Position numbers and translations under genes: made by a program. From Gammaproteobacteria bacterium (GTDB lineage Bacteria > Pseudomonadota > Gammaproteobacteria > Arenicellales > JAJDZL01), in NCBI GenBank assembly GCA_022823405.1, contig JAJDXD010000096.1, forward strand, positions 5,943 through 69,942: a DNA stretch of 64,000 nt, written 5' to 3'. This document shows positions 9,097 to 32,189 of this stretch, in pieces. Numbering within the stretch: the stretch's first letter is position 1; each line of letters begins with the position of its first letter. The notes beneath the pieces were generated by a model. The model searched no databases. It was not told the origin of the DNA and was given only the letters and a program-made list of their open reading frames with translations.

Positions 9097-9121
9097 ATTT
9101 CCGACTATTTTACTTGGTTAT
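9097..9121. promoter_or_regulatory. Putative IscR type-1 operator
   Basis: ATTTCCGACTATTTTACTTGGTTAT, 25 bp, resembles the type-1 consensus ATASYYGACTRWWWYAGTCRRSTAT; 24 bp upstream of the iscR start. Confidence 0.65.
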
Positions 9122-10846: not shown

Positions 10847-10850
10847 GTTA

Positions 10851-11711: not shown

Positions 11712-11713
11712 GG

Positions 11714-12412: not shown

Positions 12413-13137
12413 GCAGGCGTCCCCATATAGATCTCTCTCACTGTTGGCAGAGCAATTACTTCATTCGGTTCCCCTTCTGCAGTCAATTTCCCCTGGTCCA
12501 TTACAACCAGACGATTGACTACTGCGAGTAGAGCATGGACGATATGTTCTATCCAGACAATTGCGACTCCTGTTTTGGCAACTTCACGAATTGTCTGAAT
12601 TAGACTCTCACATTCCATATCCGTTAGGCCACCCGCTACTTCGTCGAGCAGTAGAATGCGAGGTTTCGTAGCTAGGGCTCTCGCCATTTCCAAGCGTTTG
12701 CGATCCAGAAGACGTAGCGTACTTGCCGGTGATTTTGCATGTGCGAGCAACGCTGTATTTTCCAGCACATCAAAACACTGATCATAAGCGGAGCGCTCTG
12801 GCAGGTTGCCGCCAAGTGTTGCACCTACGAGAACGTTTTCGAATACGCTCATACCCAAAAATGGTCTGGGAACCTGGAAGGCACGTGCAATACCTAAAGC
12901 GGCTCGCTGTTGCGCTGGAACTCTGGTTACATCCCTTCCTTCGAGAAAAATAGCACCTTCGGCGGGTAACTTGGTACCCATCGACAAGTCAAGCAATGTG
13001 GACTTACCGGCTCCATTGGGGCCAATGAGGCCAATTACGTCCGTTTGGTCAACTCGAAGCGAAACGTTGTTGGTAACAGTTAATGCACCATAACGGAATG
13101 TAATTCCCTTCAGTTCAAAAAGTAGTCTAGACGTCAC
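12409..13137 (-). CDS. Liv-type ABC ATPase, LivG-like
   Basis: GPNGAGKST, ARAFQVPRPF, LLLDEVAGGL, WIEH. Confidence 0.92.
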   Translation of the reverse strand: MTSRLLFELKGITFRYGALTVTNNVSLRVDQTDVIGLIGPNGAGKSTLLDLSMGTKLPAEGAIFLEGRDVTRVPAQQRAALGIARAFQVPRPFLGMSVFENVLVGATLGGNLPERSAYDQCFDVLENTALLAHAKSPASTLRLLDRKRLEMARALATKPRILLLDEVAGGLTDMECESLIQTIREVAKTGVAIVWIEHIVHALLAVVNRLVVMDQGKLTAEGEPNEVIALPTVREIYMGTPA

Positions 13138-14425: not shown

Positions 14426-14521
14426 AGTTATTTCCTCTCTTAGGTTAGTTTCGTTCAATCACCTGAATTGGCTAGGCAAAGTGGTGCAGGCATCTCGTCA
14501 AATTAAGTATTATCATTACAA

Positions 14522-16063
14522 TCAGCTGTCATCTAGAGTGATCAGATTGTCCCAAGGTGATTCGTTACTCCAGTTAATGCAAACACTCTGTCTTCGCATG
14601 TAACCCTTCCAGGCATCCGAACCTGCGGTTCGGCCGCCGCCGGTTTCCTTTTCCCCACCAAATGCGGCACCGACATCAGCGCCAGTCGTGCCCATATTAA
14701 CTTTGGCGATTCCACAGTCAGTGCCTGACGCAGACAAAAACTTTTCGATATTGTTCAAATTCTGACTTTGAATTCCCGATGCCAGCCCTTGGGCGACACC
14801 GTTGTGAATGTCGATTGCCTCGTCCAAGTCTTCATAGTCAATTACGAAGACCAGTGGTGCAAATGTTTCTCGCTGGATACACGGCCAATCAGCCTGACAA
14901 TCAGAAATGATGGTTGCTTCAACATAGTAGCCAGGACGATCTATTCGTTTCCCACCGTACTCAATCTTTCCTCCCTTTTCGACAGCTTCGGAAACGGCAG
15001 TCTCAAAATGTCCTACCGCAGCAGGGTCGATAAGAGGTCCAACCATCGCAGTTTCTTCCCGTGGATCACCGATGCTGATTTGCTCGAAAGAGCTGACCAA
15101 GTTTGCGATTAGTTCATCTCTAACGCTTTTGTGCGCGATGATCCGTCGAGTGCTGGTGCAACGCTGACCTGTCGTACCTACTACACCGAATGTAATTGAA
15201 CGTGCGGCAAGCTTCAGGTCTGCGGTTTCATCTACGATGCAGCCATTGTTTCCAGAACACTCCAATAGACATCGTCGCCCAAGAGTTTTGGCAACTGTAC
15301 TGGCAACATGCTGTCCCACTGCTGTAGACCCAGTGAATGAAATTAGAGCAACTCGTTCGTCTTTGACCATTTCCTCGGCAACTTCATTGTCTTCTGGTAT
15401 GAAGAGCGAGAAAACTCCGTTGTGTCCGGTTTCCTCCATGGCGCGATTAGTCAGATGCTGTAAAGCTATAGCAGTCAAGGGCACTTTGGGACTGGGTTTC
15501 CAAATTACGGTGTTGCCACCAATTGCTGACAAAAATCCATTTTGTGCCCACACAGCGGCTGGAAAGTTGTACGCGGTAATCAAGCCAGCAACACCGAGCG
15601 GTAACCATTGTTCGTACATTCGGTGTTTCTCGCGTTGTGACTGTTGGGTATGGCCGTATAACATACGTGACTGGCCAGTTGCCAGACGGCCCATGTCAAT
15701 TGCTTCCTTGACCTCGCCCTTGCCTTCCATTACTGATTTTCCAGTATCAATCGCTACAATCTTGCCGAGTGCATCGTGGTTCTCGGCCATAAGATCAGCT
15801 ATTCGTGAAATCAGTTCGCCGCGGGCCGGTGCCGGCACCATGCGCCAACGTTTTTGGGCTTCCACGGCACAATTGATGATGCGGTCGTAATCATTACGTG
15901 TTGCAGATGAAATTCCGACCGTTTTCTCACCGTTGGCAGGAAACACATGAGAAAAAACTCCATTTTCGTCAACTGGGAACCATCCATCTGCACTGCAAAA
16001 TGCTCCAGAATTCACAGTTTCTATGCCAAGCTGATCGAAGACCTCACTGATTTCAAATTTCAT
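14522..16063 (-). CDS. Aldehyde dehydrogenase, ALDH7/antiquitin-like
   Basis: GEVKEAID, ITAYNFP, FTGST, LLECSGNN (catalytic Glu), GQRCT (catalytic Cys), AFGGEKETGGGR, GSDAWKGYMRR. Confidence 0.9.
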   Translation of the reverse strand: MKFEISEVFDQLGIETVNSGAFCSADGWFPVDENGVFSHVFPANGEKTVGISSATRNDYDRIINCAVEAQKRWRMVPAPARGELISRIADLMAENHDALGKIVAIDTGKSVMEGKGEVKEAIDMGRLATGQSRMLYGHTQQSQREKHRMYEQWLPLGVAGLITAYNFPAAVWAQNGFLSAIGGNTVIWKPSPKVPLTAIALQHLTNRAMEETGHNGVFSLFIPEDNEVAEEMVKDERVALISFTGSTAVGQHVASTVAKTLGRRCLLECSGNNGCIVDETADLKLAARSITFGVVGTTGQRCTSTRRIIAHKSVRDELIANLVSSFEQISIGDPREETAMVGPLIDPAAVGHFETAVSEAVEKGGKIEYGGKRIDRPGYYVEATIISDCQADWPCIQRETFAPLVFVIDYEDLDEAIDIHNGVAQGLASGIQSQNLNNIEKFLSASGTDCGIAKVNMGTTGADVGAAFGGEKETGGGRTAGSDAWKGYMRRQSVCINWSNESPWDNLITLDDS

Positions 16064-16107
16064 AAGATTGTTCCTGTCGTATTCACGAAAGTAGTCATAT
16101 TGAATAA

Positions 16108-16842
16108 CTAGTTCTTGGGCCTGCCACCAGCAACCCATTTCTGAAACTCGTCTCGGCTATTTTCAGTGGAGGGGAACAGGCCAAAAATAGAACGACCCTG
16201 AGAGATTTGAACTTCAACAAACTCTTCATAGTCGGTAGTCGCATAGGCCGAATCTGCAACATCGTCAACCAAATGGGCAGGAATGACTACGACACCCTCC
16301 CTGTCTCCGACCACAGTATCATTCGGATACACAGCGACACCCGCGCAGCCTATTGGAACTTCCAAGTCTACTGCATGCAGCGCGATTACTGTTGAAGGGG
16401 GGGCTGATTGCCTCTGATACCCGGGAAGTCCAGCTGCCACGATGGCTGGAGTATCACGACATCCGCCATCCGTGACAAACCCGGCTATCCCTCTTTTTTT
16501 GAGGCGAGTTGCCATAATGTCGCCGATCGATGATGCTGCTACGCAATTTCCGGTATCCATTACCAGTACCGATCCCTCTGGAATTTCCTCGATCGCACGT
16601 CGATGGACATTACTGTCAAGCTCATAAATTTCCAAGTTGTCCAAGTCTTCACGTGCTGGAATAAATCGCAGTGTGTAGGCTTTTCCCAGCATTTGAGGTT
16701 GTTGAGGGTCTAAAGGGTTGAGGCCCATCAGATACCTATTTCTAAATCCCAGGGCCAGTAACGCATTGGCGATTGTTGATGTGCTGCATGCGAGCAATTT
16801 GTCATTGCTGGACAATTGGTCAGCAGTACTAGAATTCTGCAA
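16108..16842 (-). CDS. RraA/HMG-CHA aldolase family protein
   Basis: GKAYTLRFIPAREDL, IGDIM, VTDGGCRD, VGDREGVVVIP; TTG start. Confidence 0.85.
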   Translation of the reverse strand: MQNSSTADQLSSNDKLLACSTSTIANALLALGFRNRYLMGLNPLDPQQPQMLGKAYTLRFIPAREDLDNLEIYELDSNVHRRAIEEIPEGSVLVMDTGNCVAASSIGDIMATRLKKRGIAGFVTDGGCRDTPAIVAAGLPGYQRQSAPPSTVIALHAVDLEVPIGCAGVAVYPNDTVVGDREGVVVIPAHLVDDVADSAYATTDYEEFVEVQISQGRSIFGLFPSTENSRDEFQKWVAGGRPKN

Positions 16843-16867
16843 TTTTTCCTCAAAAATTAGGTCATGA

Positions 16868-16895
16868 GTTTAACATTTTATATGAAATGTTAAAC
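16868..16895. promoter_or_regulatory. 28-bp near-perfect palindrome; putative operator, core ATTTTATATGAAAT
   Basis: GTTTAACATTTTATATGAAATGTTAAAC, 26 bp upstream of the RraA-ALDH-Liv operon. Confidence 0.7.
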
Positions 16896-17310
16896 GATTC
16901 TGCTCAAATCTAAGTGTTGCAGATGACGGACTTCATAGCAAAGCCACCACTGAATCCAATTAGAACTTACCCAGGTTTGCAGGATCAACTTTTGCATTGG
17001 CAGAGATGGCGAGTGTCATATTCTCGATTTGTCCAAAAGTGGGTTCAAAGGCCGATTCGTGAGTTTTCGAATTAGTAAACCATCTTCACGTTAATCAAAC
17101 TCATTTGTTCGTTGATACGTGTTGGGTGGAATCGCCGACACCATGGGTCTGGATTGAAGTCATGGCAAAATCATTGGACACTTTCAGAAACCATCTCCAA
17201 ATAGCTGTAAATGGACTTTGTGGTTCACATCATTGCCTCTGTATGGAATACCAACGCCAAGCGAGATTAAGAAGTTCTTATAAAATATTAGCTGATAAAC
17301 TCACTAAGTC

Positions 17311-17324
17311 ATTTCATGTGAAAT
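17311..17324. promoter_or_regulatory. Operator copy ATTTCATGTGAAAT upstream of the GntR gene
   Basis: Same 14-bp palindrome family, 54 bp upstream of the GntR ATG. Confidence 0.65.
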
Positions 17325-17377
17325 AATCATTTAGAATTTCAAATGAGGGACGATTCTACAAATCGAAATGGAGCGCA

Positions 17378-18028
17378 ATGAACGATAACGTTAAAGCAAA
17401 GGTGTCAAAGCAATCTCAAAGTGATAAGGCGTATGAAATACTCAAGTGGAAAATACTGAACTCCGAACTCGCGCTAGGTCAGTTATACACAGAGATGGAA
17501 CTTTGCGAAGTCAGTGGCCTGGGAAGATCGCCGGTACGAAACGCGCTGTTTCGATTGAACCACGACCGTCTAATAAAGGTTGTTCCGCGTAAGGGCATGT
17601 TTATTCGAGGATGGTCTACAGACGAACTGAAGTCGGTTATGGAGTCACGCCTAATTCTTGAGTCCGCCACTGCAGGAATGGCAGCTAAAAATGCTACAAG
17701 CGAGCAAATCAAATATCTAGATCAATTGATGAATGACGCCGACAAATTTTTAGAAAAAAAAGATCGGAAAAGCTTGATGCGGGTTGATCACGATTTTCAT
17801 ATTGGGCTAGCAGATGCATCTGGCAATCCAGTACTTGCAGAACTGATTGGATCACTAAAGCAGCGTTCCAATCCATTGTGGTTCTTGCGGATTACAGGAC
17901 GCGATAAACTCGAAGTGGTACAAACTGAACATAGGGCGATCCTTGAGGCTGTCAAAAAAGCTGATCCCGAAGCTGCTGTCAAAGCACTGCGCGATCACAT
18001 AAAACAGTTGTCAGAAGTTATAGGGTAA
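17378..18028 (+). CDS. GntR/FCD-family transcriptional regulator
   Basis: N-terminal wHTH (SPVRNALFRL..VVPRKG); FCD domain with DHDFH, SGNPVL, EHRAILEA. Confidence 0.92.
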   Translation: MNDNVKAKVSKQSQSDKAYEILKWKILNSELALGQLYTEMELCEVSGLGRSPVRNALFRLNHDRLIKVVPRKGMFIRGWSTDELKSVMESRLILESATAGMAAKNATSEQIKYLDQLMNDADKFLEKKDRKSLMRVDHDFHIGLADASGNPVLAELIGSLKQRSNPLWFLRITGRDKLEVVQTEHRAILEAVKKADPEAAVKALRDHIKQLSEVIG

Positions 18029-18443
18029 TTCTCATGTTCTATCCGATGAATGTGTTGAAACAATAGTTTCAATTGTTGTTAGTTCTTCGAATCTGAATTT
18101 TCCTGTTATGAGGCGGCTGCATGAGCCAGTGGCTGGGCACGAGCGACAGGTACACTAATTCTCCGATGAGCCTACCTTCTATCTTCTGCGACGGAAGAAT
18201 TCACGTTTGATTGTCAGCAGATTGATTCCGAATCTTTCATCGGGCTGTAGTCGGTGGATACGATAGTAGACCTTCCAGGTGATGTCGAAACTAGATCCGA
18301 AAACTAGGCAAACATCATGTGGGTTTCAACCCCTTTCATGATTCCGTCCGTCGGTGTACCAGTCTTCAAATGTACCCGTTCGCCTGATTGACTGCTCGGC
18401 GAGAAATACTGTAAAGATATCTGTTGTATCAATATTAACTAAA

Positions 18444-18457
18444 ATTTTATATAAAAT
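18444..18457. promoter_or_regulatory. Operator copy ATTTTATATAAAAT (perfect palindrome)
   Basis: 38 bp upstream of ATG 18495; followed by GTT as in the 16868 and 20666 copies. Confidence 0.65.
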
Positions 18458-18494
18458 GTTTTACGGAGTATTACCAACTACCGGAACTAACAAT

Positions 18495-19175
18495 ATGACT
18501 GACGAAACGTTAATTCACACCCAACACCTGAGCACCAATGATTGGCAATCATTCGAGAAATTTGCGTTAAAGCAATATGTCCTGTGGGAGCATCCGACGA
18601 CTGGAGCGAGTATTGCCCTATTGGATTTTCCCAAGGGGTCGGGAATTCCCGAAAAACACTCGCATGCTTCAAATCAGTTTATGTATTGCCTTGAAGGTAA
18701 ATACGAATATACGGACTCGAATCTAGTGCTGACACCCGGTAGTTTCTACTCAAACCCCAAAGACCATCCCCATGGCCCAACGTTAGCACATGAGCGCAGC
18801 ATTCTCATTGAGGTCTACGATGGACCGCACTACTACGAAATGCCGGATTACCATACCGATAGCACAATTGGAAAGGTAACCAGTGACGAGCAATATTACA
18901 TGGTTATTGCAGTTGCGGCCAATCCGCTCCCCGGAAGTGACAGTGCTGCATATTCCGCTCACCAGCAGTTCATTAGCGGACTATCAGCTCAAAATCTAAG
19001 CCATCTCAGTGGCAGTCTAGGCAGTGAGTCTGGGAGTGAGTCGCTGGGCACGACCTATATCATCAGTGCTGAGAGCGAACAACATGCCCGCGAAATTGCA
19101 TCTAGTGATCCCTACACATCTGAAGGTCTCTATAAGAGTGTTCAGATTTTCCCGTGGCATGAACACCGTGGTTAG
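18495..19175 (+). CDS. Cupin-domain protein fused to a C-terminal YciI domain
   Basis: Cupin metal motif HSH..YCLEG..HPHGP; C-terminal AH..SGSL..G..IISAESEQHA..DPY..G...PW typical of YciI. ATG 18495 preferred over the ORF-track start because the operator lies between them. Confidence 0.75.
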   Translation: MTDETLIHTQHLSTNDWQSFEKFALKQYVLWEHPTTGASIALLDFPKGSGIPEKHSHASNQFMYCLEGKYEYTDSNLVLTPGSFYSNPKDHPHGPTLAHERSILIEVYDGPHYYEMPDYHTDSTIGKVTSDEQYYMVIAVAANPLPGSDSAAYSAHQQFISGLSAQNLSHLSGSLGSESGSESLGTTYIISAESEQHAREIASSDPYTSEGLYKSVQIFPWHEHRG

Positions 19176-19176
19176 T

Positions 19177-19575
19177 ATGAAAAAGCAACGTATCCTAACA
19201 TCTGATGTAGCAGAACCCCCACCCAAACGATGGTCCAATTGCATGCGCATTGGCGACACGGTATACATCGCCGGACTTACAGCTCGAAAACATGATGGTG
19301 AAACCCTCGCCGGAGACAATGAATATGAGCAATCACACTACATCTTCTCTAAGTTTGCTGCTTACATGAAATCAGTCGATGGCTCTATGGACGATATAGT
19401 GCAAATGATCATCTATGTGACCAACATGGCCAATAATCATGAAGTCTGGCGTGCGCGAGAAGAATTTTTTAGTGGTGATTTTCCAACCTGCACACTGGTC
19501 GAGGTCAGCAAACTTGCCAAACCAGAGATTCTGGTTGAAATAAGTGCCACGGCGCACCTTGGATGCTCTGCGTAA
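19177..19575 (+). CDS. RidA/YjgF/UK114 family protein
   Basis: VYIAGLTA, VWRAREEFF, FPTCTLVEVSKL..LVEISATA; ATG 1 bp after the upstream stop. Confidence 0.88.
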   Translation: MKKQRILTSDVAEPPPKRWSNCMRIGDTVYIAGLTARKHDGETLAGDNEYEQSHYIFSKFAAYMKSVDGSMDDIVQMIIYVTNMANNHEVWRAREEFFSGDFPTCTLVEVSKLAKPEILVEISATAHLGCSA

Positions 19576-19611
19576 ATTCAGAAATCACGTTGCCTCTCTG
19601 GAGGCCAACCA

Positions 19612-20544
19612 TTATTCGAAGAATTTATCCGGTGGAATTGGTCCCCATTGAGTCACCCCTTCCGGGGTTCCAGCTATAACAGATGGGGAGTGATGGCGAT
19701 CAACGACATCCCCGTCGCTGTAGTGCTCAATCCTTTGCTCAAAAGGATCCATCCAATAATCAAATACCTGACTACCGGCCATATGCCGCCCTACTCCAAC
19801 TTCAATTTCATATCCTTGAGAAATCAAATAATCGTGAGCTGACATAACAGCATCAATGTCCTGAACCTCAAAAGCGCAGTGATGGATTTTTATGTCGTCA
19901 GACTGCGAGATGAAAATACTATGATGATCACAGGTCCCATCTCCAGGGTCGCAACTCATGAACACGCCAATTACATTTTGCTGCTCATCCGGAGTGGCCA
20001 AATAATCTGCAGCTCGCAACCCGAAATGCGTTCCGAACCATGTTTCTGAATCGGCAGCATCACTAACAGTTATCGCCACGTGGCCAAGACGCAAAGCATG
20101 CGCAATTCCCTTTGGTGGGCGTTGCGACTCGTTTACGCGTTGTTTGTGGGTTCCGAAATTGTGAATCAATGGCTCTCGCACGTCAGTCGGACGATGCCAT
20201 TGGCGCCCATACACAACATCTATTCGGTGACCATCAGGGTGCATTACTGTGGCTTTTTTCCCACCATAATGGCTGCCCAGTGATTCCACATTCGTTGCCA
20301 ATCCATTATCAACCAGTATTTCTAGATCCTTCTCATTTCGGGCTTCCAACGCAAGACCTAGAAACTTATTGGAACTACCCAAAGTAGCGATATATGCATA
20401 CGGGTTCCCATTGGCAGTGGAGAAACCGACTTCGCTTTCGGTTTGATAACCTATTCCAAGCCCAAAGTCATACATAAACTTGATCATTACGTTCAGGTCT
20501 GTCACCTGATAATGGACATAAGCCAAATCTCTTACGGTAATCAT
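19612..20544 (-). CDS. Two-domain VOC extradiol dioxygenase, 2,4,5-trihydroxytoluene oxygenase (DntD)-like
   Basis: RLGHV, DHHSIF, IHHCAFEV, GVGRHMAGSQVFDYWMDPF..IEHYSDGD, QWGP: His/His/Glu triad and signature of the THT-oxygenase subfamily. Confidence 0.82.
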   Translation of the reverse strand: MITVRDLAYVHYQVTDLNVMIKFMYDFGLGIGYQTESEVGFSTANGNPYAYIATLGSSNKFLGLALEARNEKDLEILVDNGLATNVESLGSHYGGKKATVMHPDGHRIDVVYGRQWHRPTDVREPLIHNFGTHKQRVNESQRPPKGIAHALRLGHVAITVSDAADSETWFGTHFGLRAADYLATPDEQQNVIGVFMSCDPGDGTCDHHSIFISQSDDIKIHHCAFEVQDIDAVMSAHDYLISQGYEIEVGVGRHMAGSQVFDYWMDPFEQRIEHYSDGDVVDRHHSPSVIAGTPEGVTQWGPIPPDKFFE

Positions 20545-20665
20545 TAAATCAGCACCCAAGAATGATGAAGGTTTACCCAAAACTCGAAAATAGAATTCTC
20601 ATTTCCAACGGAACAGCATAGATCGAGTTTGGTCGCAACATTTTGCGTTCAGGAATATTTTATGT

Positions 20666-20679
20666 ATTTCATGTGAAAT
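20666..20679. promoter_or_regulatory. Operator copy ATTTCATGTGAAAT in the divergent dioxygenase/FAH promoter gap
   Basis: Identical to the 17311 copy, followed by GTTA. Confidence 0.65.
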
Positions 20680-20726
20680 GTTATAGTAAACGTTATCCCA
20701 AATGAAACTAGATACTGGACGAAAAC

Positions 20727-21575
20727 ATGAAACTACTGAGAGTTGGCGATACTGGAGCCGAAGTACCTGCTATTTTGGATTCGAAAGGAGTGGCCAGGGA
20801 CATATCAAAGGTTATTCCCGAAATTTCCGGCGAGTATCTGGGACGCAGCACTCTGGATCAGCTTCGGAACCTCGACTTGTCGCAATTTCCTAAAATTTCG
20901 GCAAATACTCGCGTAGGACCATGTGTTGGCGCTAGCTCAAAGTTTGTGTGTATCGGTCTGAACTACGTCGACCACGCCCGAGAAGCGGGCAGACCAATTC
21001 CCAAAGAACCCGTAGTTTTTATGAAAGCTACGACGTCTATCAGTGGTCCGTTCGACGACATCGAAATGCCAGCAGATTCGAAAAAATCCGACTGGGAAGT
21101 TGAGCTAGGTATCGTCATCGGTGAGCACACCAAGCGAATTTCTGAGGACAGCGCCTTTGATCACATTGCTGGCTATTGTCTGGTGGACGATGTTTCTGAG
21201 CGCGCATACCAATCAGAACGAGGGGGCCAATGGGTCAAAGGGAAAAGTTTGGATAGTTATGGACCGATCGGTCCATGGCTGGTCACAAAGGAGGAAATAC
21301 CTGATCCTAACGCGCTGACAATTTGGCATGAGGTAGACGACCATCGTTACCAGGATGGATCTACGTCCGATATGATCTTCAGAGTCGGCTACTTGGTTAG
21401 CTACCTTAGCCAATTTATGACGTTGTTACCTGGAGACATCATTTCTACAGGAACCCCGGCAGGAGTTGGTCTTGGTCAAAAACCGGACCCTGTATACCTT
21501 AAACCTGGACAGACGCTCAGATTAGGCATCGACGGACTCGGGGAACAACTTCACAAAGTCGTGAGCGTTCAATAG
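20727..21575 (+). CDS. Fumarylacetoacetate hydrolase family protein
   Basis: CIGLNYVDHA, DWEVELG, DVSERAYQ..WVKGKS, GDIISTGTPAGVG. Confidence 0.92.
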   Translation: MKLLRVGDTGAEVPAILDSKGVARDISKVIPEISGEYLGRSTLDQLRNLDLSQFPKISANTRVGPCVGASSKFVCIGLNYVDHAREAGRPIPKEPVVFMKATTSISGPFDDIEMPADSKKSDWEVELGIVIGEHTKRISEDSAFDHIAGYCLVDDVSERAYQSERGGQWVKGKSLDSYGPIGPWLVTKEEIPDPNALTIWHEVDDHRYQDGSTSDMIFRVGYLVSYLSQFMTLLPGDIISTGTPAGVGLGQKPDPVYLKPGQTLRLGIDGLGEQLHKVVSVQ

Positions 21576-21687
21576 TCACCGAATACAGCCTACCGTGCGG
21601 GGATTGCACTTTCAACCTCGGCCAGTGTGAACCATGTAGTATAGTGGCACCGACACCAATCTATGCTGTCAACAATAGGAATTAGTC

Positions 21688-22128
21688 CTAATTCTCAACA
21701 ATTCGTTTCAGTTCAGATACAAACTCGTTTCCGATTGAATCGGCAACTTTTTCCATCATTCCTCCACCAAATTTTCCTAGACGCCCGACAAGGCTAAAAT
21801 CCGATTCGTAGGTAACTGAGGTGTTGTTACCATTTCCACTCAAAGCTAGAGTGCTTGTGGCTTTAAGCCGACTGGACTTCTTTCCTTCGTCTCCTTTACT
21901 CTCATATCTGGCGTATTCAGGTGGGCGCTGCTCGACGCAAGCAATGTTGAGATTGAACTTTGTTTTTATTGGTCCAAGTTTCACGAGAACGGTTACACGG
22001 TACGTGTCGTCTACTTGTTCAGCATTTTCACAGCCGGGTACACATTGCGCAACTTGTTTGGGATCGGTGACAACTCCCCAAACCCTGTCAATCGGCGCTT
22101 CGACCTCGAATGTTTTTTTGATTAACAA
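21688..22128 (-). CDS. CoxG/SRPBCC-family protein
   Basis: VWGVVTDP..AQCVPG, VKLGPI, GRLGKFG. Confidence 0.85.
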   Translation of the reverse strand: MLIKKTFEVEAPIDRVWGVVTDPKQVAQCVPGCENAEQVDDTYRVTVLVKLGPIKTKFNLNIACVEQRPPEYARYESKGDEGKKSSRLKATSTLALSGNGNNTSVTYESDFSLVGRLGKFGGGMMEKVADSIGNEFVSELKRIVEN

Positions 22129-22130
22129 GG

Positions 22131-24461
22131 CTACAGTTTTCCCAATGCCTGGAGTACCTTTTCAGGTGTAATCGGCAAGTCACGAATACGGGCCCCCGTA
22201 GCATTGTAGACAGCATTTGCAATCGCTCCTGGCGGTGCTATCAGACAACACTCCGAAAGGCTTTTTGCGCCAAAAGGACCGGTCGGTTCATTGGACTCAA
22301 TAAAAATACATTCAATTTCTGGCGGCATTTCGACAGCAGTGGGCATTTTGTAATCAAGAAAGTCACTGGACAGGCAGGCACCGGTATCTGGATCAAACTG
22401 AACCTGCTCAGTCAGCGTGTAGCCGATGGCTTGCTGTAAACCACCTTCAACTTGACCCTCTGCTCCGGCCGGATTGATAACTCGACCAATGTCATGGGCA
22501 TATACCGCGCGAACCACCCGAACTTCTCCAGTGTCGGTATTGACCTCAACCTTTACGAACATCGCAGATGCGGGAATTGGGCTGAAAGTGGGTGCCATTG
22601 TGGCACTACCAATGATAGTACCGCGATAAGGGGTTGAATCACCCTGGGGTCCTTGCTCGGTCATGGTTACCAACGGTGAATCAGCACGAGACGCTACGTC
22701 GCTTATGCTTATCGATAGATTCTCCACTCCTTTCACGAACACCATACCGTCCCGGGTATCCAGATCTTCAGGACTGGCTTCCAGCATGGTGCCTGCGACT
22801 TTGAGAAGATTCCTCTTGGCATCGGCAGCGGCAGCCTTTACTGTGTTACCGACCGCATTCGTTCCACGACTGGCATGCATTGGAGCATCAAATGGAGCAT
22901 TGCTGGTATCGGTTGAGGACATTCGCACCTGTTCTACAGGGATGCCCAGTTCGGCAGCAACAATTTGGCAGAACACAGTATTTTGCCCACACCCGATATC
23001 AATAGCCGCTGAGCAAATGTCGGCGGATCCGTCTACATTTAGCTTGATGAATGCTCCCGAATGTTCGTACAGATCGGGCTGAGCAGAACAGTTCGATGTC
23101 CAGGTAACGGCGCAACCGAGGCCAATACCTGTTTTGACTACACCTTCGTCTGAACCAGCTTTCTTGCGTTGGCTCCAGCCTATACGCTCGGCACCTTGCC
23201 GCAGGCAGTCATCAAAACGGTAAGTACTAAAGGTTCCGTTAAAGATTGGGTGGGGCTCTCCCTCTTTATGTGCATTCTTGATTCGAAACTCAACAGGGTC
23301 CAGATTCAGTTCCTCACAAATTTCGTCGATCTGCTGTTCGACAGCAAAGGATGCTTGAGGGGCGCCATAGCCCCTAAAACCACCACTAATTACGTTGTTG
23401 GTATGAACGGATAAGCCTTCCCAACGTCTATTCGCACAACTATAAGTGAAGCAGTAGCCGAACAGGCCATGGACCATTATTACGGTTGAGGCGTGAGTTG
23501 CATGCGCGCCGGCATCCAGTGTGCTACGGGCTTGCCTTACGGTTATTGTCCCGTCAGACTTTACACCAGTTTTGAGTTCCATTCGAATTGGGCACTTATT
23601 GCTGGTCACAAACTCTTCGGCTCGGGTCAAAACCATCCGGACAGGACGATTGGTGATTTGACTGAAGATCGCAGAAATTGGCTCAATTGGTGTGATGTCG
23701 AGCTTACCACCAAATCCACCTCCTATGTAAGGCGGCTTGACCACTCTGACTTTGCTTTGCGGTAGTCCCAACACAAACGCGAGCTTTTCGCGAAGGCCGA
23801 ACAAATGTTGCATGGAGCTCTGAATAGTGACGTTACCGTTAAAGTCCACATCAGCTATACAAACATGAGGTTCCATCGAACAAATGTTGATACGATGGGT
23901 TTCGTAGGTTTGCTCGAAAACGTGGTCAGCTTCTGCAAAACCTGCATCGGGGTCTCCAGTTTCAACCTTCTCATGCTTGGCGATGTTTTTTTCGGTGTAA
24001 TCGTGAATTGCAGGCGCCCCATCCATCATTGCGTCGTCAACATTGAAGACCGCAGGTAATTCTTCATATTCGATGTCAATCAAATCCAGAGCTTGCTCCG
24101 CAATTTCTGGTGTAGTCGCTGCTACCGCTGCAACAGGTTGGCCGGCGTAACGTACGGTTCGACTCATTAGGGTCATGTCCTGAATACAGCCAAGACCCTC
24201 AGTCGGCATAAAGTAAATTGGAGAGTACTTGATCTGAGGCACGTCGTCCGGGGTCAGCACTGCCTTAACGCCAGGAAGCGATTCTGCGTGGGAAACATCG
24301 ATGCTGACAATCTTGGCGTGGGGATACGGACTACGTAACATTATTCCATGCAGCATTCCAGGTAATGATGCATTGATTGGAAAGCCCCGGCCGCCGGTGA
24401 CCTTGTCTTCGGCATCGTGAAACTTGACGTGGGTGCCTACGGTATCGCTGAATTTCGACAT
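22131..24461 (-). CDS. Xanthine-dehydrogenase-family molybdopterin large subunit
   Basis: RSPYPHA, IGGGFGGK, FRGYGAPQ, HASRG, GQVEGG, GPFGAKSLSE (catalytic Glu). Confidence 0.93.
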   Translation of the reverse strand: MSKFSDTVGTHVKFHDAEDKVTGGRGFPINASLPGMLHGIMLRSPYPHAKIVSIDVSHAESLPGVKAVLTPDDVPQIKYSPIYFMPTEGLGCIQDMTLMSRTVRYAGQPVAAVAATTPEIAEQALDLIDIEYEELPAVFNVDDAMMDGAPAIHDYTEKNIAKHEKVETGDPDAGFAEADHVFEQTYETHRINICSMEPHVCIADVDFNGNVTIQSSMQHLFGLREKLAFVLGLPQSKVRVVKPPYIGGGFGGKLDITPIEPISAIFSQITNRPVRMVLTRAEEFVTSNKCPIRMELKTGVKSDGTITVRQARSTLDAGAHATHASTVIMVHGLFGYCFTYSCANRRWEGLSVHTNNVISGGFRGYGAPQASFAVEQQIDEICEELNLDPVEFRIKNAHKEGEPHPIFNGTFSTYRFDDCLRQGAERIGWSQRKKAGSDEGVVKTGIGLGCAVTWTSNCSAQPDLYEHSGAFIKLNVDGSADICSAAIDIGCGQNTVFCQIVAAELGIPVEQVRMSSTDTSNAPFDAPMHASRGTNAVGNTVKAAAADAKRNLLKVAGTMLEASPEDLDTRDGMVFVKGVENLSISISDVASRADSPLVTMTEQGPQGDSTPYRGTIIGSATMAPTFSPIPASAMFVKVEVNTDTGEVRVVRAVYAHDIGRVINPAGAEGQVEGGLQQAIGYTLTEQVQFDPDTGACLSSDFLDYKMPTAVEMPPEIECIFIESNEPTGPFGAKSLSECCLIAPPGAIANAVYNATGARIRDLPITPEKVLQALGKL

Positions 24462-24464
24462 GTT

Positions 24465-24938
24465 CTACTCCCCGGTCGTCTGGCCTGAAGCTAGTTTCAC
24501 AGCTTCGATAATTTTGTGATAGCCGGTACAGCGGCATAAATTGCCCGCAAGACCTTGTCGTATTTCGGCATCATTTGGCTTGCTGTTAATGGAAAGCAGC
24601 TGCTTAGTTGCCAATATCATACCGCTCGTGCAGTAACCACACTGAACCGCACCACTGTCGATGAATGCCTGTTGAATGTGATCCAAATTTCGACCATCAG
24701 CTAATCCTTCAACCGTTGTGATTTCGGCATCTGCGACGGTCATTGTGTATGTCATACAGCTATAGCGAGATTCACCGTTAACTAGCACGGTGCAACAACC
24801 GCAGCCACCGGTATCGCAACCTTGTTTCGGCCCTATAAGATGCAACTCGTTCCGAAGCGTATGTAAGAGAGTATCGAAGGGTTCGATTATCGCGGGTTGA
24901 ACCTCGCCGTTAACATTAATCTCAATTTGTTGTTTCAT
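24465..24938 (-). CDS. Mo-hydroxylase small [2Fe-2S] subunit
   Basis: GCDTGGCGCCTV, QCGYCTSG, GNLCRCTGY. Confidence 0.95.
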   Translation of the reverse strand: MKQQIEINVNGEVQPAIIEPFDTLLHTLRNELHLIGPKQGCDTGGCGCCTVLVNGESRYSCMTYTMTVADAEITTVEGLADGRNLDHIQQAFIDSGAVQCGYCTSGMILATKQLLSINSKPNDAEIRQGLAGNLCRCTGYHKIIEAVKLASGQTTGE

Positions 24939-24955
24939 CCTGATAGTTCCCAAAG

Positions 24956-25828
24956 TCAAGACAATTGATTGGCAACACGTGCTAGACAGCGTCTTACCAA
25001 AACGCCGGTAATATGCTTTCGGTATTGAGCCGATGCTCGGTGATCCGAAAAAGGCTCAATTTCGCCTTTGGCTGCTGTGGCCGCCCGCTTAATATCCTCC
25101 GCATTCAACTCTGAATTCTCAAGAACCGCTTCAGCTTCGCAGCAGCGAAACGGGACTTCACCGATTCCGCCCCCGACAAAAATTCGAGCACCTGACTGTG
25201 AACCACCGCTCAATGAAAGTCTGACACCGACGCTGACAATTGAAAGATCGTTGGCGGTAGTCTCCATTTTTTCGAATGACGATGCCGACTGTTCTGACGG
25301 TTGAGGTACCTTGATCTCTGTAATGATTTCGCCAGGAATCAAATTAGTTTCAAATAGAGATACGAACAACTCATCAATTGGAAATTCCCTAGTGCCGTCA
25401 GGACCAGTTGCACAAACCATCGCGTCCAATGCCAAAAAGGCAATCGGCATATCAAGGTAAGGACACGACGCTGCCACGCCTCCCCCAATAGTTGCTGCGT
25501 TCTTTACCTGTCGAGGCGGGTATGCAATCGCTTCGCGTAATGCTCCCAGCAACGAAATATTCTGAATCTCGGCAGAGGCCTCAAGACTGGCAAATGAAGT
25601 GCTCGCACCGAGTCTAATGACATTTTCGTCGAACGTCATATGGTTCAGATTTAGACGCGACAAATCAATGAGCTGTTCAACATCGGTAACGAGGCCTCTT
25701 GCTACCAAACCGTGAATAAACGTGCCACCACCGATAACCATCGCAGAATCCTGACAGGCCTGCAGTATCGCAACTGCCTCTTCGACGCTATTGGGCTGAC
25801 TAAACCCCTGTAGTGTTGTAAGTGCCAA
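24956..25828 (-). CDS. Mo-hydroxylase FAD-binding medium subunit
   Basis: IGGGT, QVKNAATIGG, DHRASAQYR. Confidence 0.9.
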   Translation of the reverse strand: MALTTLQGFSQPNSVEEAVAILQACQDSAMVIGGGTFIHGLVARGLVTDVEQLIDLSRLNLNHMTFDENVIRLGASTSFASLEASAEIQNISLLGALREAIAYPPRQVKNAATIGGGVAASCPYLDMPIAFLALDAMVCATGPDGTREFPIDELFVSLFETNLIPGEIITEIKVPQPSEQSASSFEKMETTANDLSIVSVGVRLSLSGGSQSGARIFVGGGIGEVPFRCCEAEAVLENSELNAEDIKRAATAAKGEIEPFSDHRASAQYRKHITGVLVRRCLARVANQLS

Positions 25829-26070
25829 TGTTCTCTCCTCGGTAGTTACCTTGACTATACGACCCTGCTTCTGTTAGCGGTCGTCATGCCAGATTAAATG
25901 CGCTGATTGTGATATGATAATATTTCTTGTAATATCTTACTAGACATTTAAGCCCGACCCATCTAAGCGCGACCCATCAACAAATTCTACGCTAATTTTG
26001 ATATTTGGTATTGAACGTCGATGGAAGTCGGAATTTCATTTTGACAAATAGATAACGTGGAGGTAACACA

Positions 26071-26880
26071 GTGTCAGAACTAACTCTTTATGATTTTGCC
26101 GAGTCAGTCTGTTGCCAGAAAGTGCGTCTAGTCATAGCTGAAAAGGGTCTCTCGGTGCGGGAAGTGCCAGTGCCGCTGGATGAGGGTGCTCAGTTTAAGC
26201 CCGAATTTCTCAAACTGAATCCAAAGGCTATTGTTCCGGTCGCTACACACAATGATCGAGTGATAACCGAGTCGACGGTAATCAACGAATATATAGAGGA
26301 AGCGTTTGAAGGACCAAATCTACTACCCGAAAATGCCTATCACCGGGCGATGGCCCGTAACTGGTCGCTTCGAGTGGATTTAGGGTTACATAGCCCCCAC
26401 ACCACTGTGGTTAGTTTTGTCGTGGCTCTGCGTTATGCATTTATGGACAAGCTGGACACACCGGAAAAGATAGCAGCGCATTTGCAAAATGTCATGGATC
26501 CGGTAAGTCGCGAAATGCAGCGCCAAGGATTTGAGATGGCTTACGAGGCACCGGCTTTTCGTGACGCTATCTTGGCATTTGATGATTTGCTCGAGCAAAT
26601 GAATGCGGCACTGACACAGTCCAAGTGGTTGGTTGGTGATCACGTGTCGTTGGCAGATTTCAATCTTGCACCTTACATTCATCGACTCGACACCCTAGGT
26701 TTGTCAGGTATGTGGTCCCATCGAAGTGATGTAGCTCGCTGGTACGAGGCATTACAGCAGCGTCAAAGTTGGGACCAGGCGATTCAGAAACCCCATGTGG
26801 CAATGTGGCTTGATCTAATGGCAATGGGTGGTAAAGAAGGTGCCCCAATTGTGGCGAGAATGCTCGAAACGTCATCCTGA
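26071..26880 (+). CDS. Glutathione S-transferase family protein
   Basis: [40 protein letters not shown]. Confidence 0.92.
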
Positions 26881-27027
26881 GGCAACAAACATCTTCTATC
26901 AACGCAATTTTGTTCAGCAAATGCGAACAGAATCGAAAGTCATTTCAATCCAATTTGACTCCACTTGAGAAGAGGATTGAGGTGTTGTATGCGAGTCCCG
27001 ATTCAATAGCAAAAAGGTGATGCAATT

Positions 27028-27402
27028 ATGGACATATCTGAACTCTTAAATTTTGTCGGAAGAGTGCTGGTTGCGGCGTACTTTCTCTGGGCTGTCTGGT
27101 TCAATTTCGCGAACCGTGGATTTCATCTATCCGAGTTTGAACGAATCGGCGTAGGTGGTGGGAAAATCCTTTTCTTGGTTGGGCAGGTTTTCGCACTGGG
27201 TGGCAGTGTAATGTTTCTGATTGATGCGGTCGCGTTATACGGTGCCGCTTTACTGATCATCTTCACATTGGTGGCTGACATGCTGTTTCACAGATTCTGG
27301 ACTTATCCGGACCCAGAGCATTCAACTATTCACAAGTTCTTTTTGTATGAGCATGTAGCTCTGATCGGCGGAATTCTAGGACTTGCCAGTGCACACCTTT
27401 AA
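27028..27402 (+). CDS. DoxX-family membrane protein
   Basis: GRVLV..F, four hydrophobic segments, FHRFW, EHVALIGG. Confidence 0.8.
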   Translation: MDISELLNFVGRVLVAAYFLWAVWFNFANRGFHLSEFERIGVGGGKILFLVGQVFALGGSVMFLIDAVALYGAALLIIFTLVADMLFHRFWTYPDPEHSTIHKFFLYEHVALIGGILGLASAHL

Positions 27403-27564
27403 CGTCTTTCTAAGTTAAGGGTGCTATTTCCGCCTCGCGGTGCATGTGCAGTTGAGGTGAGGAATTGTGGCTGCCGATTGTACGTTAACTTTTTTACCCT
27501 GCTATTGCTCAAAAATGTAATTTGTGTATAATTTCTCAAAAAATATCACATAAAATTTCTGCAA

Positions 27565-27891
27565 ATGACAGCATACTTTATCGCACTAGGAACCTTAAAG
27601 GATCCAGAAAAAATGGAGCGTTATGTAGAACTATCTGGGCCAATCATGGCTAGGCATGGTGGACAATGGATTTCCACTGGAGAGGTTAAGAAGATTCTCA
27701 CTGGGTCACACAAACATGATCGAGTGGCGATATTCAGCTTCCCAAGTATTGAACATGTTGAGGCTTGGTATAACGACCCGGACTACAAATCGCTTTGGGA
27801 GTTCCGGAGCGAATGTGGTGATTTTGATTTCTTGGCCGTGGAAGAATTTCCTTGGGTCGCAGACGCAAAAAAAACACTTGAAGAGGAGTAA
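27565..27891 (+). CDS. DUF1330-family protein
   Basis: MTAYFI..DPEK...Y...HGG, FPS.E...AWY.DPDY. Confidence 0.85.
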   Translation: MTAYFIALGTLKDPEKMERYVELSGPIMARHGGQWISTGEVKKILTGSHKHDRVAIFSFPSIEHVEAWYNDPDYKSLWEFRSECGDFDFLAVEEFPWVADAKKTLEEE

Positions 27892-27895
27892 TTAT

Positions 27896-28981
27896 ATGAA
27901 AACAATGAGATTCTGTGCCAAACTGGTAATCGCAGGAGCGATCACCCTGACTGTGGGCGTGGGTTCGACGGTTGCTGACTGGAGCTTCGACGTTTTAGCC
28001 CGGGACGACCTTCGTAAAACCGCAATGGAACCTCTCAATGGTTCAGTGAAAACATATACAGCACTAAGCCAATCCGAGGTGACAAAAAAATGGAGCCTGT
28101 GCATGCTGGTTCCACATACGACCAATGAGATTTTACGTGCTTACATTTGGGGTACAGTTGATGAAGCTAAACGTCTAGGCGCAAAGCTGACAACATTCGA
28201 CGCTGGAGGTTATGACAAGCTATCCACGCAACTGTCCCAATTTGACGATTGTGTCACTCTAGGTGCCGACGCAATTCTTCTTATGGCGATCTCACCTACC
28301 GCCTACGGACAAAAAATTGCTGCAGCTAGAGAACGGGGCGTTAAGGTTATTGACCTGAATATCGGTGTTGATGCCGAGGTCGATGGACGTGTGGTTGTCA
28401 CCTTCAAGTTTGTTGGCGACGTTATTGGTAAAGCATTGGCGGAACGACACCCCAGTGACAGTGTATCGGTCATCGTGATGCCCGGACCTGCCGGTGTAGC
28501 ATGGTCAGAAGATATGGTTATTGGCCTTAATGACGCAATTGTTGGTTCTGGCGTAAGTGTCGAAAAGGTAGTTTACGGTGCGCCGGGCAAAATTGACCAG
28601 CAGCCATTGGTTGAGGATGTTTTGACTGCGTATGCCGATCTGGACTACATCGCGGGAATGGGAAGCTCCGTTGAAGCGGCAGTAAACATCCTTCGGGAAC
28701 AAGGTCGTGTTGGTGAGGTGAAACTCTATGGAACTTGGTTGACACCGACCGTTATCCAGGGCTTGAAGGACAAAATTATTGAAGGCGTCGTCCTTGAGAA
28801 CTCAGTGATCGTCAACCGTTTGGCTGTCGACCTTGCTATTCGAGTTCTCGAAGGCAAAGCCGATCCGACCTTGCTTGATGTGGTTCCTGTCGTGTCACTG
28901 GTTGATGGTGTGTCTGTAGATGACGCGCCGGCTGCCAACTTTGCACCAGCGGACTGGCAAACCGAAATGAACGTGGACTAG
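27896..28981 (+). CDS. TorT-like periplasmic ABC substrate-binding protein
   Basis: Signal peptide after GAGGAG RBS; KKWSLCMLVPH, EAKRLG...DAGGY, DCV..GADAI, PGPAG..W: TorT-like pattern. Confidence 0.8.
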   Translation: MKTMRFCAKLVIAGAITLTVGVGSTVADWSFDVLARDDLRKTAMEPLNGSVKTYTALSQSEVTKKWSLCMLVPHTTNEILRAYIWGTVDEAKRLGAKLTTFDAGGYDKLSTQLSQFDDCVTLGADAILLMAISPTAYGQKIAAARERGVKVIDLNIGVDAEVDGRVVVTFKFVGDVIGKALAERHPSDSVSVIVMPGPAGVAWSEDMVIGLNDAIVGSGVSVEKVVYGAPGKIDQQPLVEDVLTAYADLDYIAGMGSSVEAAVNILREQGRVGEVKLYGTWLTPTVIQGLKDKIIEGVVLENSVIVNRLAVDLAIRVLEGKADPTLLDVVPVVSLVDGVSVDDAPAANFAPADWQTEMNVD

Positions 28982-29000
28982 TTCTGCTTAGGAAAATTTT

Positions 29001-29028
29001 AGGTGGCAGGTGAACTGCCACCTTTTTT
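29001..29028 (+). terminator. Intrinsic terminator or stabilising hairpin after the binding-protein gene
   Basis: AGGTGGCAG-GTGAA-CTGCCACCT followed by a T run. Confidence 0.75.
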
Positions 29029-29055
29029 CCAAAAACATAACATCTGGAAACTCTC

Positions 29056-29649
29056 ATGCCAAGGCTATCTCCTCTCGAAAGAAACAAACTCACTGAGTTT
29101 GAATCAGTATTTAAAGAAATGGAGGACGCTCTGGGTTACGTTCCGAATAGCTTCTTCACTATGGGACGTGTTCCAGAGATTATGCACGCAGTCAGCGGCT
29201 TAATGGACCATCTTTGGTACCCCGACAGGGTTTCGGAGCCGGTTCGTCGCCTTGTCACTTATGCATATAGCTGGTTCGCCGGTTCTCCATATAGCGCTGC
29301 CCATTGCGCCTGCGGTGCGGAGGAGTTAGGGTTATCACTTGAAAAAATCCAAGCAATTGAGGATTACGAAACTTCATCTGTCTATTCAGAATCCGAAAGA
29401 TGTCTACTGCGCCTCTGCAGACATGCAGCTTACATGCCGGCACGTGTTGAGGATGAAGATATAGAACAGTTGCGTAATCACTTTTCCGAATCTGAGATTC
29501 TGTATGTCATCGGATTGATCTCCTGCGTCGCATTTCTGAATAAATGGAACGAAATCATTCAGACTGCTCTTGAGCCCATCCCAGAAGAATGGGCAACCCG
29601 AAATTTGCACGGATTTAAGTCAAGTTTCAACAAGTCTAGTAACGTTTGA
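29056..29649 (+). CDS. AhpD/carboxymuconolactone decarboxylase family protein lacking the CxxC motif
   Basis: LGYVPNSF..M..VP, GSPYSAAH, FSESEI, FLNKWN. Confidence 0.78.
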   Translation: MPRLSPLERNKLTEFESVFKEMEDALGYVPNSFFTMGRVPEIMHAVSGLMDHLWYPDRVSEPVRRLVTYAYSWFAGSPYSAAHCACGAEELGLSLEKIQAIEDYETSSVYSESERCLLRLCRHAAYMPARVEDEDIEQLRNHFSESEILYVIGLISCVAFLNKWNEIIQTALEPIPEEWATRNLHGFKSSFNKSSNV

Positions 29650-32179: not shown

Positions 32180-32189
32180 GGATGCAATA

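Follow-up and report, generated by a model that had tools for sequence, protein, structure and literature searches.

When the same short palindrome stands before gene after gene in one part of a genome, does it mark a single regulatory system, and if so, which protein reads it and to what effect? The case considered here is a 14-bp palindrome, ATTTYAYRTRAAAT, that recurs in the promoter gaps of a ~22-kb catabolic and transport island (~9848-32179) on a 64-kb stretch of gammaproteobacterial DNA, called the window below (contig C82:5943-69942 of host assembly G000, GenBank GCA_022823405.1; 3,149,712 bp in 166 contigs, 47% GC). A first-pass annotation, made from the letters of the window alone, had proposed that the palindrome defines the regulon of a GntR-type regulator encoded within the island at 17378-18028, and that transcription units on both strands form one system. 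We think it probable that the palindrome is the operator of this regulator, which would act as an effector-released local repressor at six promoter regions heading eight transcription units, its own gene included. The proposal of one GntR-run system is supported at the sequence level by the confinement of the motif to the island, its de novo recovery from orthologous loci, its co-occurrence with the regulator, and the synteny of the surrounding genes.

Distribution of the palindrome in the window and genome

All four exact copies of ATTTYAYRTRAAAT reported by the annotation are present, beginning at 16875, 17311, 18444, and 20666, and a scan of the whole assembly finds none beyond these. One hundred dinucleotide-preserving shuffles of the window yielded no exact copy. 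The annotation had itself named an equal frequency of the motif in unrelated AT-rich intergenic DNA as grounds for abandoning the idea. In an AT-matched control of 5000 dinucleotide-preserving shuffles of five island gaps (1551 bp, 60.7% AT), the mean number of exact copies was 0.001, with at least one copy in five of the 5000, compared to the four observed.

Degenerate copies are harder to judge by simple counting. Relaxed matching gives 10 one-mismatch and 158 two-mismatch matches genome-wide, of which the window's share is one and seven; with up to two mismatches allowed, the window has 12 matches, vs. 3.72 ± 1.86 in its shuffles. Counting mismatches to an IUPAC string left real and chance copies unseparated, and was therefore rejected as a test of the degenerate copies in favor of a cross-validated matrix. 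This was learned by palindrome-constrained expectation maximization (EM) on 24 promoter gaps (5359 bp) from eight other lineages carrying the regulator, with the window and its near-identical twin locus left out. EM converged with a local background and a fixed expected number of sites; a run without these settings collapsed to plain A/T-richness. The consensus obtained from the orthologous loci alone is ATTTTATATAAAAT, position 5 being T or C and position 7 C or T (half matrix A.78, T.97, T/A/G, T.92, T.67/C.32, A.69, C.40/T.45; the second half is its mirror image), and is the motif of the annotation except at the loose positions 3 and 12.

Applied to the host assembly, this ortholog-only matrix places island sites in six of the top nine positions (18444, 16875, 27543, 20666, 17311, and 25922), and with the addition of 27531 in seven of the top 14. 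Scored with an AT-rich background, seven matches in the 64-kb window reach at least 13 bits, all of them in island gaps, where no more than two such matches occurred in any of the 5000 gap shuffles. That there are no copies upstream of housekeeping genes, as the annotation had it, is borne out: exact copies are confined to the island, and only three off-island matches reach at least 16 bits. These three, at C128:22423 (bactofilin), C155:46915 (a LysR/binding-protein pair), and C14:36257 (TerB), lie beside unrelated genes and were judged chance occurrences. A further off-island match, C108:16920, sits on a gene junction.

The sites fall into six promoter regions, designated W1 to W6:

W1, 16875-16888: exact, inside a 28-bp palindrome at 16868-16895 (inverted repeat, 13 of 14 pairs); 18.0 bits, genome rank 3; center 39.5 nt 5' of the RraA-like aldolase gene, which starts with TTG and leads a minus-strand operon.
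W2, 17311-17324: exact; 17.1 bits; center 60.5 nt 5' of the ATG of the GntR gene; a candidate autoregulatory operator.
W3, 18432-18457: two 14-mers 12 bp apart, 18432-18445 (weak; 10.9 bits with AT-rich background) and 18444-18457 (exact; 16.4 bits with AT-rich background, 18.9 bits and rank 1 in the genome scan); centers 56.5 and 44.5 nt 5' of the cupin/YCII start at 18495.
W4, 20666-20679: exact; 17.1 bits; in the divergent gap between genes for an extradiol dioxygenase (minus strand) and an FAH-family hydrolase (plus strand); center 92.5 nt from the dioxygenase start and 54.5 nt from the FAH start.
W5, 25922-25947: two 14-mers 12 bp apart, 25922 (14.3 bits with AT-rich background; 16.0 bits and rank 9 genome-wide) and 25934 (8.9 bits with AT-rich background); between a molybdenum hydroxylase operon (minus strand) and a GST-DoxX unit (plus strand); centers 100.5 and 112.5 nt from the hydroxylase FAD-subunit start, and 142.5 and 130.5 nt from the GST start.
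W6, 27531-27556: two 14-mers 12 bp apart, 27531 (13.1 bits with AT-rich background) and 27543 (16.0 bits with AT-rich background; 17.6 bits and rank 4 genome-wide; a full match to the refined motif given below); 27.5 and 15.5 nt 5' of a DUF1330 gene, the region beginning where a TTGCTC-16-TATAAT promoter candidate ends.

All supported sites are intergenic and upstream of a unit start, as the annotation had stated, with centers between 15.5 and 142.5 nt 5' of start codons. The 28-bp palindrome that it drew around the first copy is also real, with arms at 16868-16881 and 16882-16895 that are 93% complementary. Its three degenerate copies fared differently: 27543 and 25922 stand, the latter because two other lineages (L022 and L023) have an alignable element in the corresponding position, 5' of the hydroxylase FAD-subunit gene. 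At 17273, by comparison, no 14-mer reaches 8 bits (the best nearby is 8.0, at 17275), and the 99%-identical twin carries a substitution there; this copy was dropped. Three sites can be added to the original list, at 18432, 25934, and 27531, each exactly 12 bp from a listed one. A better description of the motif than the first is thus ATnTYAY-RTRAnAT (the hyphen marks the center), often flanked by AACAT and ATGTT and often repeated, two or three times over, at a spacing of exactly 12 bp.

Orthologous loci, phasing, and spread

A search of 5.8 billion proteins returned 23 clusters of regulator orthologs at 51-100% identity, below which identity falls to 31%; by sequence these are a discrete group. 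Scans with an alignment of the 23 (A1) located eight loci in genome records and four on metagenome contigs, the named records all being Gammaproteobacteria. With near-duplicates removed (L021 is the twin of the window, and L028, L031, and L030 are near-duplicates of L025, L022, and L029), nine lineages remain, the window among them. In tblastn searches with the window proteins, the regulator is found beside the same aldehyde dehydrogenase, RraA-like, hydroxylase, CoxG, cupin, RidA, dioxygenase, and FAH genes. This enzyme cluster is syntenic, in rearranged order, in L022/L031, L023, L025/L028, L026, and L027, and partly so on the short contigs L029/L030. The RraA-like gene of L022 is split into two open reading frames (ORFs; 9121-9441 and 9470-9898) and is whole in the near-identical L031, so that the split is probably an assembly frameshift.

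The motif accompanies the cluster. In a leave-one-lineage-out analysis, the matrix was relearned without each locus and the left-out locus then scanned, the designated cluster gaps making up 2-12% of each. The same consensus was learned in every run, and the top matches fell inside cluster gaps for the window (seven of seven), L022 (three of three), L023, at 63% GC (three of three), L026 (four of four), L027 (six of six), and L029 (two of two). Particular positions are also kept. The FAH gene has a site beside it in the window (W4), as in L022/L031, L023, and L029/L030; the frame AACAT-N10-ATGTT precedes the RraA gene in the window (W1) and L029/L030, with AATAT-N10-ATGTT in L023; and 25922-25947 aligns with a 26-bp palindrome 5' of the hydroxylase FAD-subunit gene in L022, with a counterpart in L023. 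The annotation had remarked that one copy precedes the GntR gene, consistent with autoregulation. In six of the nine lineages (the window, where it is W2, and L023, L024, L026, L027, and L029), the gap 5' of the regulator gene contains a site of at least 10 bits, a distribution that would fit autoregulation.

The 12-bp spacing of paired sites is not confined to the window, where the partners in 18432/18444, 25922/25934, and 27531/27543 share a terminal AT. Phased arrays elsewhere include L022 19022/19034; L026 9755/9767 and the triplet 17340/17352/17364; and L027 8728/8740, 9891/9903, and 17282/17294. Around 28 anchor sites of at least 11 bits in seven lineages, a second site of at least 8 bits was found at ±12 bp in 19 of 56 flanks, compared to 0-4 of 56 at each of the other offsets from 4 to 30; around 62 chance anchors elsewhere in the host genome, it was found at ±12 bp in none of 124. 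GT and AC dinucleotides appear only at the tandem junctions, as GTAA-N4-TTAC, with GT and AC 8 nt apart. Another kind of repetition is present in L025, the lineage with the weakest sites: between its regulator and aldehyde dehydrogenase genes (10700-10810) is a ~50-bp tandem duplication of two near-identical units.

Within the window's own order the regulator is rare. An ortholog of the regulator (E ≤ 1e-50) was found in two of 243 genomes, the host (G000) and G013; in a first draw of relatives, G013 was the only one of 40 other genomes with a close copy (99%), the next best match being 32%. The motif follows the same pattern. Across 31 same-genus genomes, the exact sequence occurs four times in each of G000 and G013, always in the island, and zero to two times in each of the other 29 (eight in total), all of which also lack a regulator ortholog. 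Outside the order, the best regulator matches are in unrelated Gammaproteobacteria, in records named Porticoccaceae and Cocleimonas. Because the ortholog is found in only two of the 243 genomes and its other best matches are in such unrelated groups, sequence comparison suggests that the island (~9848-32179) was acquired horizontally.

The transporter differs by lineage. A sodium:solute symporter is encoded in L022 (18959-20596), L023 (18996-20465), and L026 (8259-9647), and its counterpart in the window is two ATP-binding cassette (ABC) systems (9848-14458 and 27892-32179). The enzyme core appears to move with interchangeable uptake modules.

The regulator and the proposed reading of the sites

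The 216-amino acid protein encoded at 17378-18028 on the plus strand is a GntR-family regulator with an FCD effector domain, predicted from Pfam matches and an AlphaFold2 model to be of the VanR type. Its GntR winged helix-turn-helix domain (PF00392, residues 15-76) scores 40.5 bits against a cut-off of 27, and its FCD domain (PF07729, residues 87-209) 106.3 bits against 24.3. In the model, built on the A1 alignment (mean predicted local distance difference test score 85.5), residues 14-76 fold into three helices and a wing of two strands. Superposed at full length, it gives template modeling (TM) scores of 0.84 with McbR, 0.83 with AlkR (VanR), 0.82 with 3ihu, and 0.81 with 7u5q, vs. 0.39-0.50 with the domain-swapped E. 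coli FadR entries; the modeled fold points to the VanR rather than the FadR subgroup of FCD regulators, the former having neither a domain swap nor an additional helix past the linker. Helix count alone is ambiguous, as DSSP assigns seven helical elements of which two (151-163 and 165-171) may be one kinked helix.

The conserved DNA contacts given in PMC7797058 are Glu34, Arg45, Thr46, Arg49, and Gly66. E39, R50, S51, R54, and G73, invariant in the 23 orthologs, match these positions by a constant offset rather than by residue-level alignment. The position corresponding to Arg35, a specific contact in FadR, is Met here and variable among the orthologs, which would fit a departure from a TGGT-type half-site. 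Also unchanged across the orthologs are four effector-domain residues, D137, H141, H185, and H207, each aligned with the same amino acid in TM0439, which PMC7797058 describes as a metal-binding FCD protein. The mark of a metal-binding FCD domain is a pocket with three His and an Asp/Asn (PMC7797058), and the four residues may form such an Asp/His3 metal site.

From these elements a mechanism can be proposed. Dimers of the regulator would bind the six regions, at W1 (16875), W2 (17311), W3 (18432/18444), W4 (20666), W5 (25922/25934), and W6 (27531/27543), and so control the eight units that these head. Bound protein would block RNA polymerase, since the likely core promoters lie under the sites or just upstream of them: at least one weak sigma-70 candidate overlaps a site at seven of the eight units (none was found for RraA), and the positions of the sites relative to these candidates are compatible with promoter occlusion. 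A pathway substrate or intermediate, most likely a carboxylate held at the conserved, putative Asp/His3 metal site of the FCD domain, would release the protein and induce the island. At paired 14-mers with a shared terminal AT, the two dimers would be immediate neighbors on the DNA, and their binding could be cooperative.

Local GntR repressors with palindromic operators are textbook biology, and by position the island regulator would be one that is autoregulated, with a putative operator 5' of its own gene and others 5' of adjacent catabolic and transport operons.

The nearest described parallel is Atu1419, from Agrobacterium fabrum. This GntR repressor, an FCD protein of the VanR type, controls the hydroxycinnamate region through three identical 10-bp palindromes over -10 boxes, its own promoter included (PMC7797058). 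As in the window, an identical short palindrome serves several promoters of one catabolic region and that of the regulator itself; both proteins are VanR-type, and Atu1419 has a Zn site of three His and an Asp/Asn. Its structures match the island regulator model with Foldseek probability 1.00 and TM scores of 0.62-0.66. The two are only ~22% identical, however, and not orthologous. In the same source, the Atu1419 operator, 10-bp ATGTATACAT, fits a GT..AC signature, whereas the island motif is 14 bp with an AY-RT center; and Atu1419 is a tetramer with two palindromes 190 bp apart, whereas the second sites of the island are exactly 12 bp away. McbR/YncC (4p9f), AlkR (9isw), 3ihu, and 7u5q are the best full-length matches to the model, but their identity to it is 17-31%, and none is an ortholog.

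Operators of the FadR subfamily are described as A/T-rich palindromes with TKGT/ACMA boxes whose GT and AC are 2-3 nt apart, and like those of the island they precede local catabolic operons and the regulator gene (PMC4494728). The weaker extra boxes noted in that survey, 7-12 nt from site centers, resemble the 12-bp second sites here. It names BioR and NanR as outside the family consensus, the BioR site being an all-A/T-rich TTATMKATAA palindrome and that of NanR consisting of repeated units; the island motif joins these exceptions, which show that atypical sites can be recognized by FCD regulators. Both differ from it in sequence, length, and spacing, and NanR matches the regulator in the FCD domain only, without orthology.

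Several observations weigh against the operator-repressor reading. The promoter candidates are weak (8-9 of 12 matching positions), and a generic promoter scan gave no excess, with 12 candidates vs. 16.2 in shuffles. One contig from an RNA library, 17231-17937, spans W2; if it is a true transcript, W2 would lie in a leader rather than over a -10 box. Three of the nine lineages are weak. The best site in L025/L028 is 11.0-11.8 bits, and L025 when left out gave a single weak match (11.0 bits), so that six of seven left-out loci gave gap matches; L024 has at best 10.1 bits near the gene, on an 8.6-kb contig without the enzyme cluster; and L032 has no site upstream and one downstream. W6 lacks orthologous support, its transporter unit being found only in the window and the twin locus. 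The phasing matrix was trained on the same gaps in which phasing was counted, although the offset itself was outside the training. The FadR-subfamily signature given in PMC4494728 is missing: the 14-mer has a TYAY-RTRA center, and W3 contains no G or C at all. Finally, the open-access literature yielded no binding or expression experiment for the regulator or its orthologs. Searches of it with the motif strings and GntR, or with this enzyme combination and GntR, likewise returned nothing relevant.

Some of these points bear on the sign of regulation. The GntR protein might bind the motif and yet act as an activator, or as a dual regulator, at some or all of the promoters. The W5 sites, 100-142 nt from both start codons, would suit an upstream activator as well, and the predictions that place other sites over core promoters are, as noted, weak. 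Island sequence is also present in RNA libraries: a ~98%-identical strain occurs in sponge metagenome and metatranscriptome runs, 39% of the sampled words of the stretch are found in one metatranscriptome, and RNA-library contigs of that strain cover all 30 bins from 12600 to 32500 (the whole island, in one sponge metatranscriptome), so that the genes may be on in situ. DNA carry-over could account for such coverage, however, and transcript start, strand, and level are not readable from contigs, the form that the RNA evidence takes; contig ends at 27552 and 16850, from one study each, were not used. Against activation, W1, W3, W4 (for FAH), and W6 are 15-57 nt from start codons, which leaves little room for a promoter downstream, and the characterized FCD regulators considered here, in the Atu1419 study (PMC7797058) and the FadR-subfamily survey (PMC4494728), are described as repressors. 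We regard activation as unlikely.

A second possibility is that a transcription factor encoded outside the island reads the motif, and the GntR protein recognizes something else. The motif does lack the GT-N2-3-AC core expected of FadR-subfamily operators (PMC4494728), and the genome encodes six more GntR/FCD paralogs. One of these (C152:10210-10785, minus strand) has a 12.1-bit match ~112 nt 5' of it, at C152:10897, possibly a coincidence or else an operator of related type that belongs to this paralog; but no site of at least 14 bits lies within 3 kb of any of the six. Such a factor would also have to travel with the island, since the motif is concentrated only in the two of 31 same-genus genomes that carry this regulator and is kept beside its orthologs in genomes with a GC content of 44-63%. 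The island has a single transcription factor gene, that for the GntR/FCD protein; a scan of 48 window ORFs (321-51090) turned up just one more, the Rrf2 gene of a suf operon. No other regulator gene is conserved in the orthologous loci scanned: apart from one HicB-like antitoxin, regulator domains were absent from 41 non-cluster ORFs, out of 99 ORFs in six loci, the remainder being cluster orthologs, spurious opposite-strand ORFs, or more than 6 kb from the regulator. An outside factor therefore seems quite improbable.

It is very unlikely that the copies are non-regulatory, whether as AT-rich palindromes arisen by chance, as generic elements of promoters, or as a short dispersed repeat like repetitive extragenic palindromes or miniature inverted-repeat transposable elements. 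The sites are AT-rich in AT-rich gaps, and two-mismatch matches are common genome-wide, but the exact sequence is nearly absent from AT-matched shuffles and confined to the island in the genome. The flanks of the six window sites are unlike one another, so that the repeated unit is the site itself rather than a longer element, and Rfam finds no RNA family over 16000-28500 at E-values up to 0.1. Sites also recur at orthologous promoter positions in distant genomes, one of them of 63% GC.

That the sites are centromere-like parS or Noc-binding sites (NBS) for a ParB/Noc-family protein can be dismissed as exceedingly improbable. The consensus parS (TGTTTCAC-GTGAAACA) and NBS (TATTTCCC-GGGAAATA) sequences are 14-16-bp palindromes of which the L022 copy and W2/W4 resemble a hybrid, with the CACGTG of parS inside and the ATTTC...GAAAT of NBS outside (bioRxiv 10.1101/724823), and a literature string search on the motif core gave only ParB/parS papers. 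Yet every island site is more than three mismatches away from the parS consensus of 16 bp, the matrix favors T at position 5 and permits an all-A/T center, and Noc is restricted to Firmicutes according to the same source. The genome's one ParB_N gene (36993-37271) is encoded on a different contig, C83, where a parS-like palindrome 2.9 kb upstream of it (34071) is probably the real centromere site. The island sites, by comparison, follow catabolic promoters in all lineages. The likeness is one of spelling only; the proteins belong to different families, and the sites differ in where they lie in the genome and in how they degenerate.

The preferred reading thus remains the operator-repressor one. 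The sequences themselves show a motif confined to the island, conserved at the promoters of orthologs, accompanying the regulator, and phased at 12 bp; that this protein is the binder, that it represses and does not activate, that the effector is of the class proposed, and that the dimers cooperate are what we infer.

The island and its regulator in context

The units that the sites would control, together with the regulator gene described above, are as follows:

9848-16842, minus strand: seven genes, for an RraA-like aldolase, an aldehyde dehydrogenase, a LivK-type binding protein, two ABC ATPases, and two permeases (Pfam); taken as one operon from the tight packing of the genes on the same strand.
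18495-19575, plus strand: a Cupin_7/YCII fusion gene, then a RidA-family gene (Pfam).
19612-20580, minus strand: a two-domain VOC (extradiol-type) dioxygenase (Pfam), weakly similar to solved dioxygenases.
20727-21575, plus strand: an FAH-family hydrolase (Pfam, 236.7 bits); among NCBIfam models it comes nearest to that of a 2,4-diketo-acid hydrolase, with a score under the cut-off.
21688-25828, minus strand: an operon of CoxG and a three-subunit molybdenum hydroxylase (FAD, 2Fe-2S, and Mo subunits; Pfam).
26071-27402, plus strand: a GST-like gene and a DoxX gene (Pfam), divergent from the hydroxylase operon.
27565-32179, plus strand: DUF1330, a TorT-like binding protein, a CMD-family protein, an ABC ATPase, and a permease (Pfam, NCBIfam), forming the second transporter unit.

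The enzymes match NCBIfam equivalog models below their cut-offs, and their neighbors in the Protein Data Bank are distant; the nearest solved large subunit to that of the molybdenum hydroxylase is 4-hydroxybenzoyl-CoA reductase alpha. An aromatic or N-heteroaromatic carboxylate would be our guess for the pathway substrate. The DoxX gene of L022 is just downstream of the aldehyde dehydrogenase gene, on the same strand.

The first gene after W6 was hidden in the ORF list. The 441-amino acid binding-protein ORF is over-extended at its 5' end, as its Pfam match starts at residue 145, and beneath the extension is a DUF1330 gene of 108 amino acids (27565-27891, 79.6 bits). Another DUF1330 gene (L024:5263-5550) is divergent from the regulator ortholog in L024, so that DUF1330 recurs with this regulator. 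The RNA contig 27552-29063, over DUF1330 and the binding protein, has a depth of 37.6, vs. 2-9 elsewhere, with DNA depth flat at ~9-10.

Two long gaps flank the regulator gene (16843-17377, 535 bp, and 18029-18494, 466 bp); the RraA-regulator gap is ~100-250 bp elsewhere. A tblastn search with all ORFs of seven orthologous loci found no pseudogene remnants in these or in four other gaps, and no Pfam family matches the 73-amino acid ORF at 17105-17326. The island directly adjoins a suf operon for Fe-S assembly (2788-9073), which includes the gene for an Rrf2-family regulator and contains no motif site of at least 13 bits.

We would also put forward, as a tentative and more doubtful proposal, that the orthologous VanR-type FCD group reads DNA in a way undescribed for the family, through an A/T-rich 14-mer without a GT/AC core, in exact 12-bp arrays that would place two or three dimers edge to edge, and that it controls an undescribed ring-cleavage pathway, initiated by a molybdenum hydroxylase, which marine and sponge-associated Gammaproteobacteria would exchange horizontally while swapping its transporters.

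What is unusual in the system is limited to the atypical operator and the 12-bp phasing; it is otherwise of a well-known kind. The value of the motif is in part that it delimits the island, tying together eight units on both strands with genes for enzymes, two ABC transporters, GST, DoxX, and DUF1330, which is useful because all the enzymes are far from characterized relatives. The operator-repressor pair may serve as a reporter, and its effector should be the pathway substrate or an intermediate, which would offer a route to the substrate. For the FCD regulators as a family, the motif and its strict 12-bp phasing add an atypical case to the known operators.

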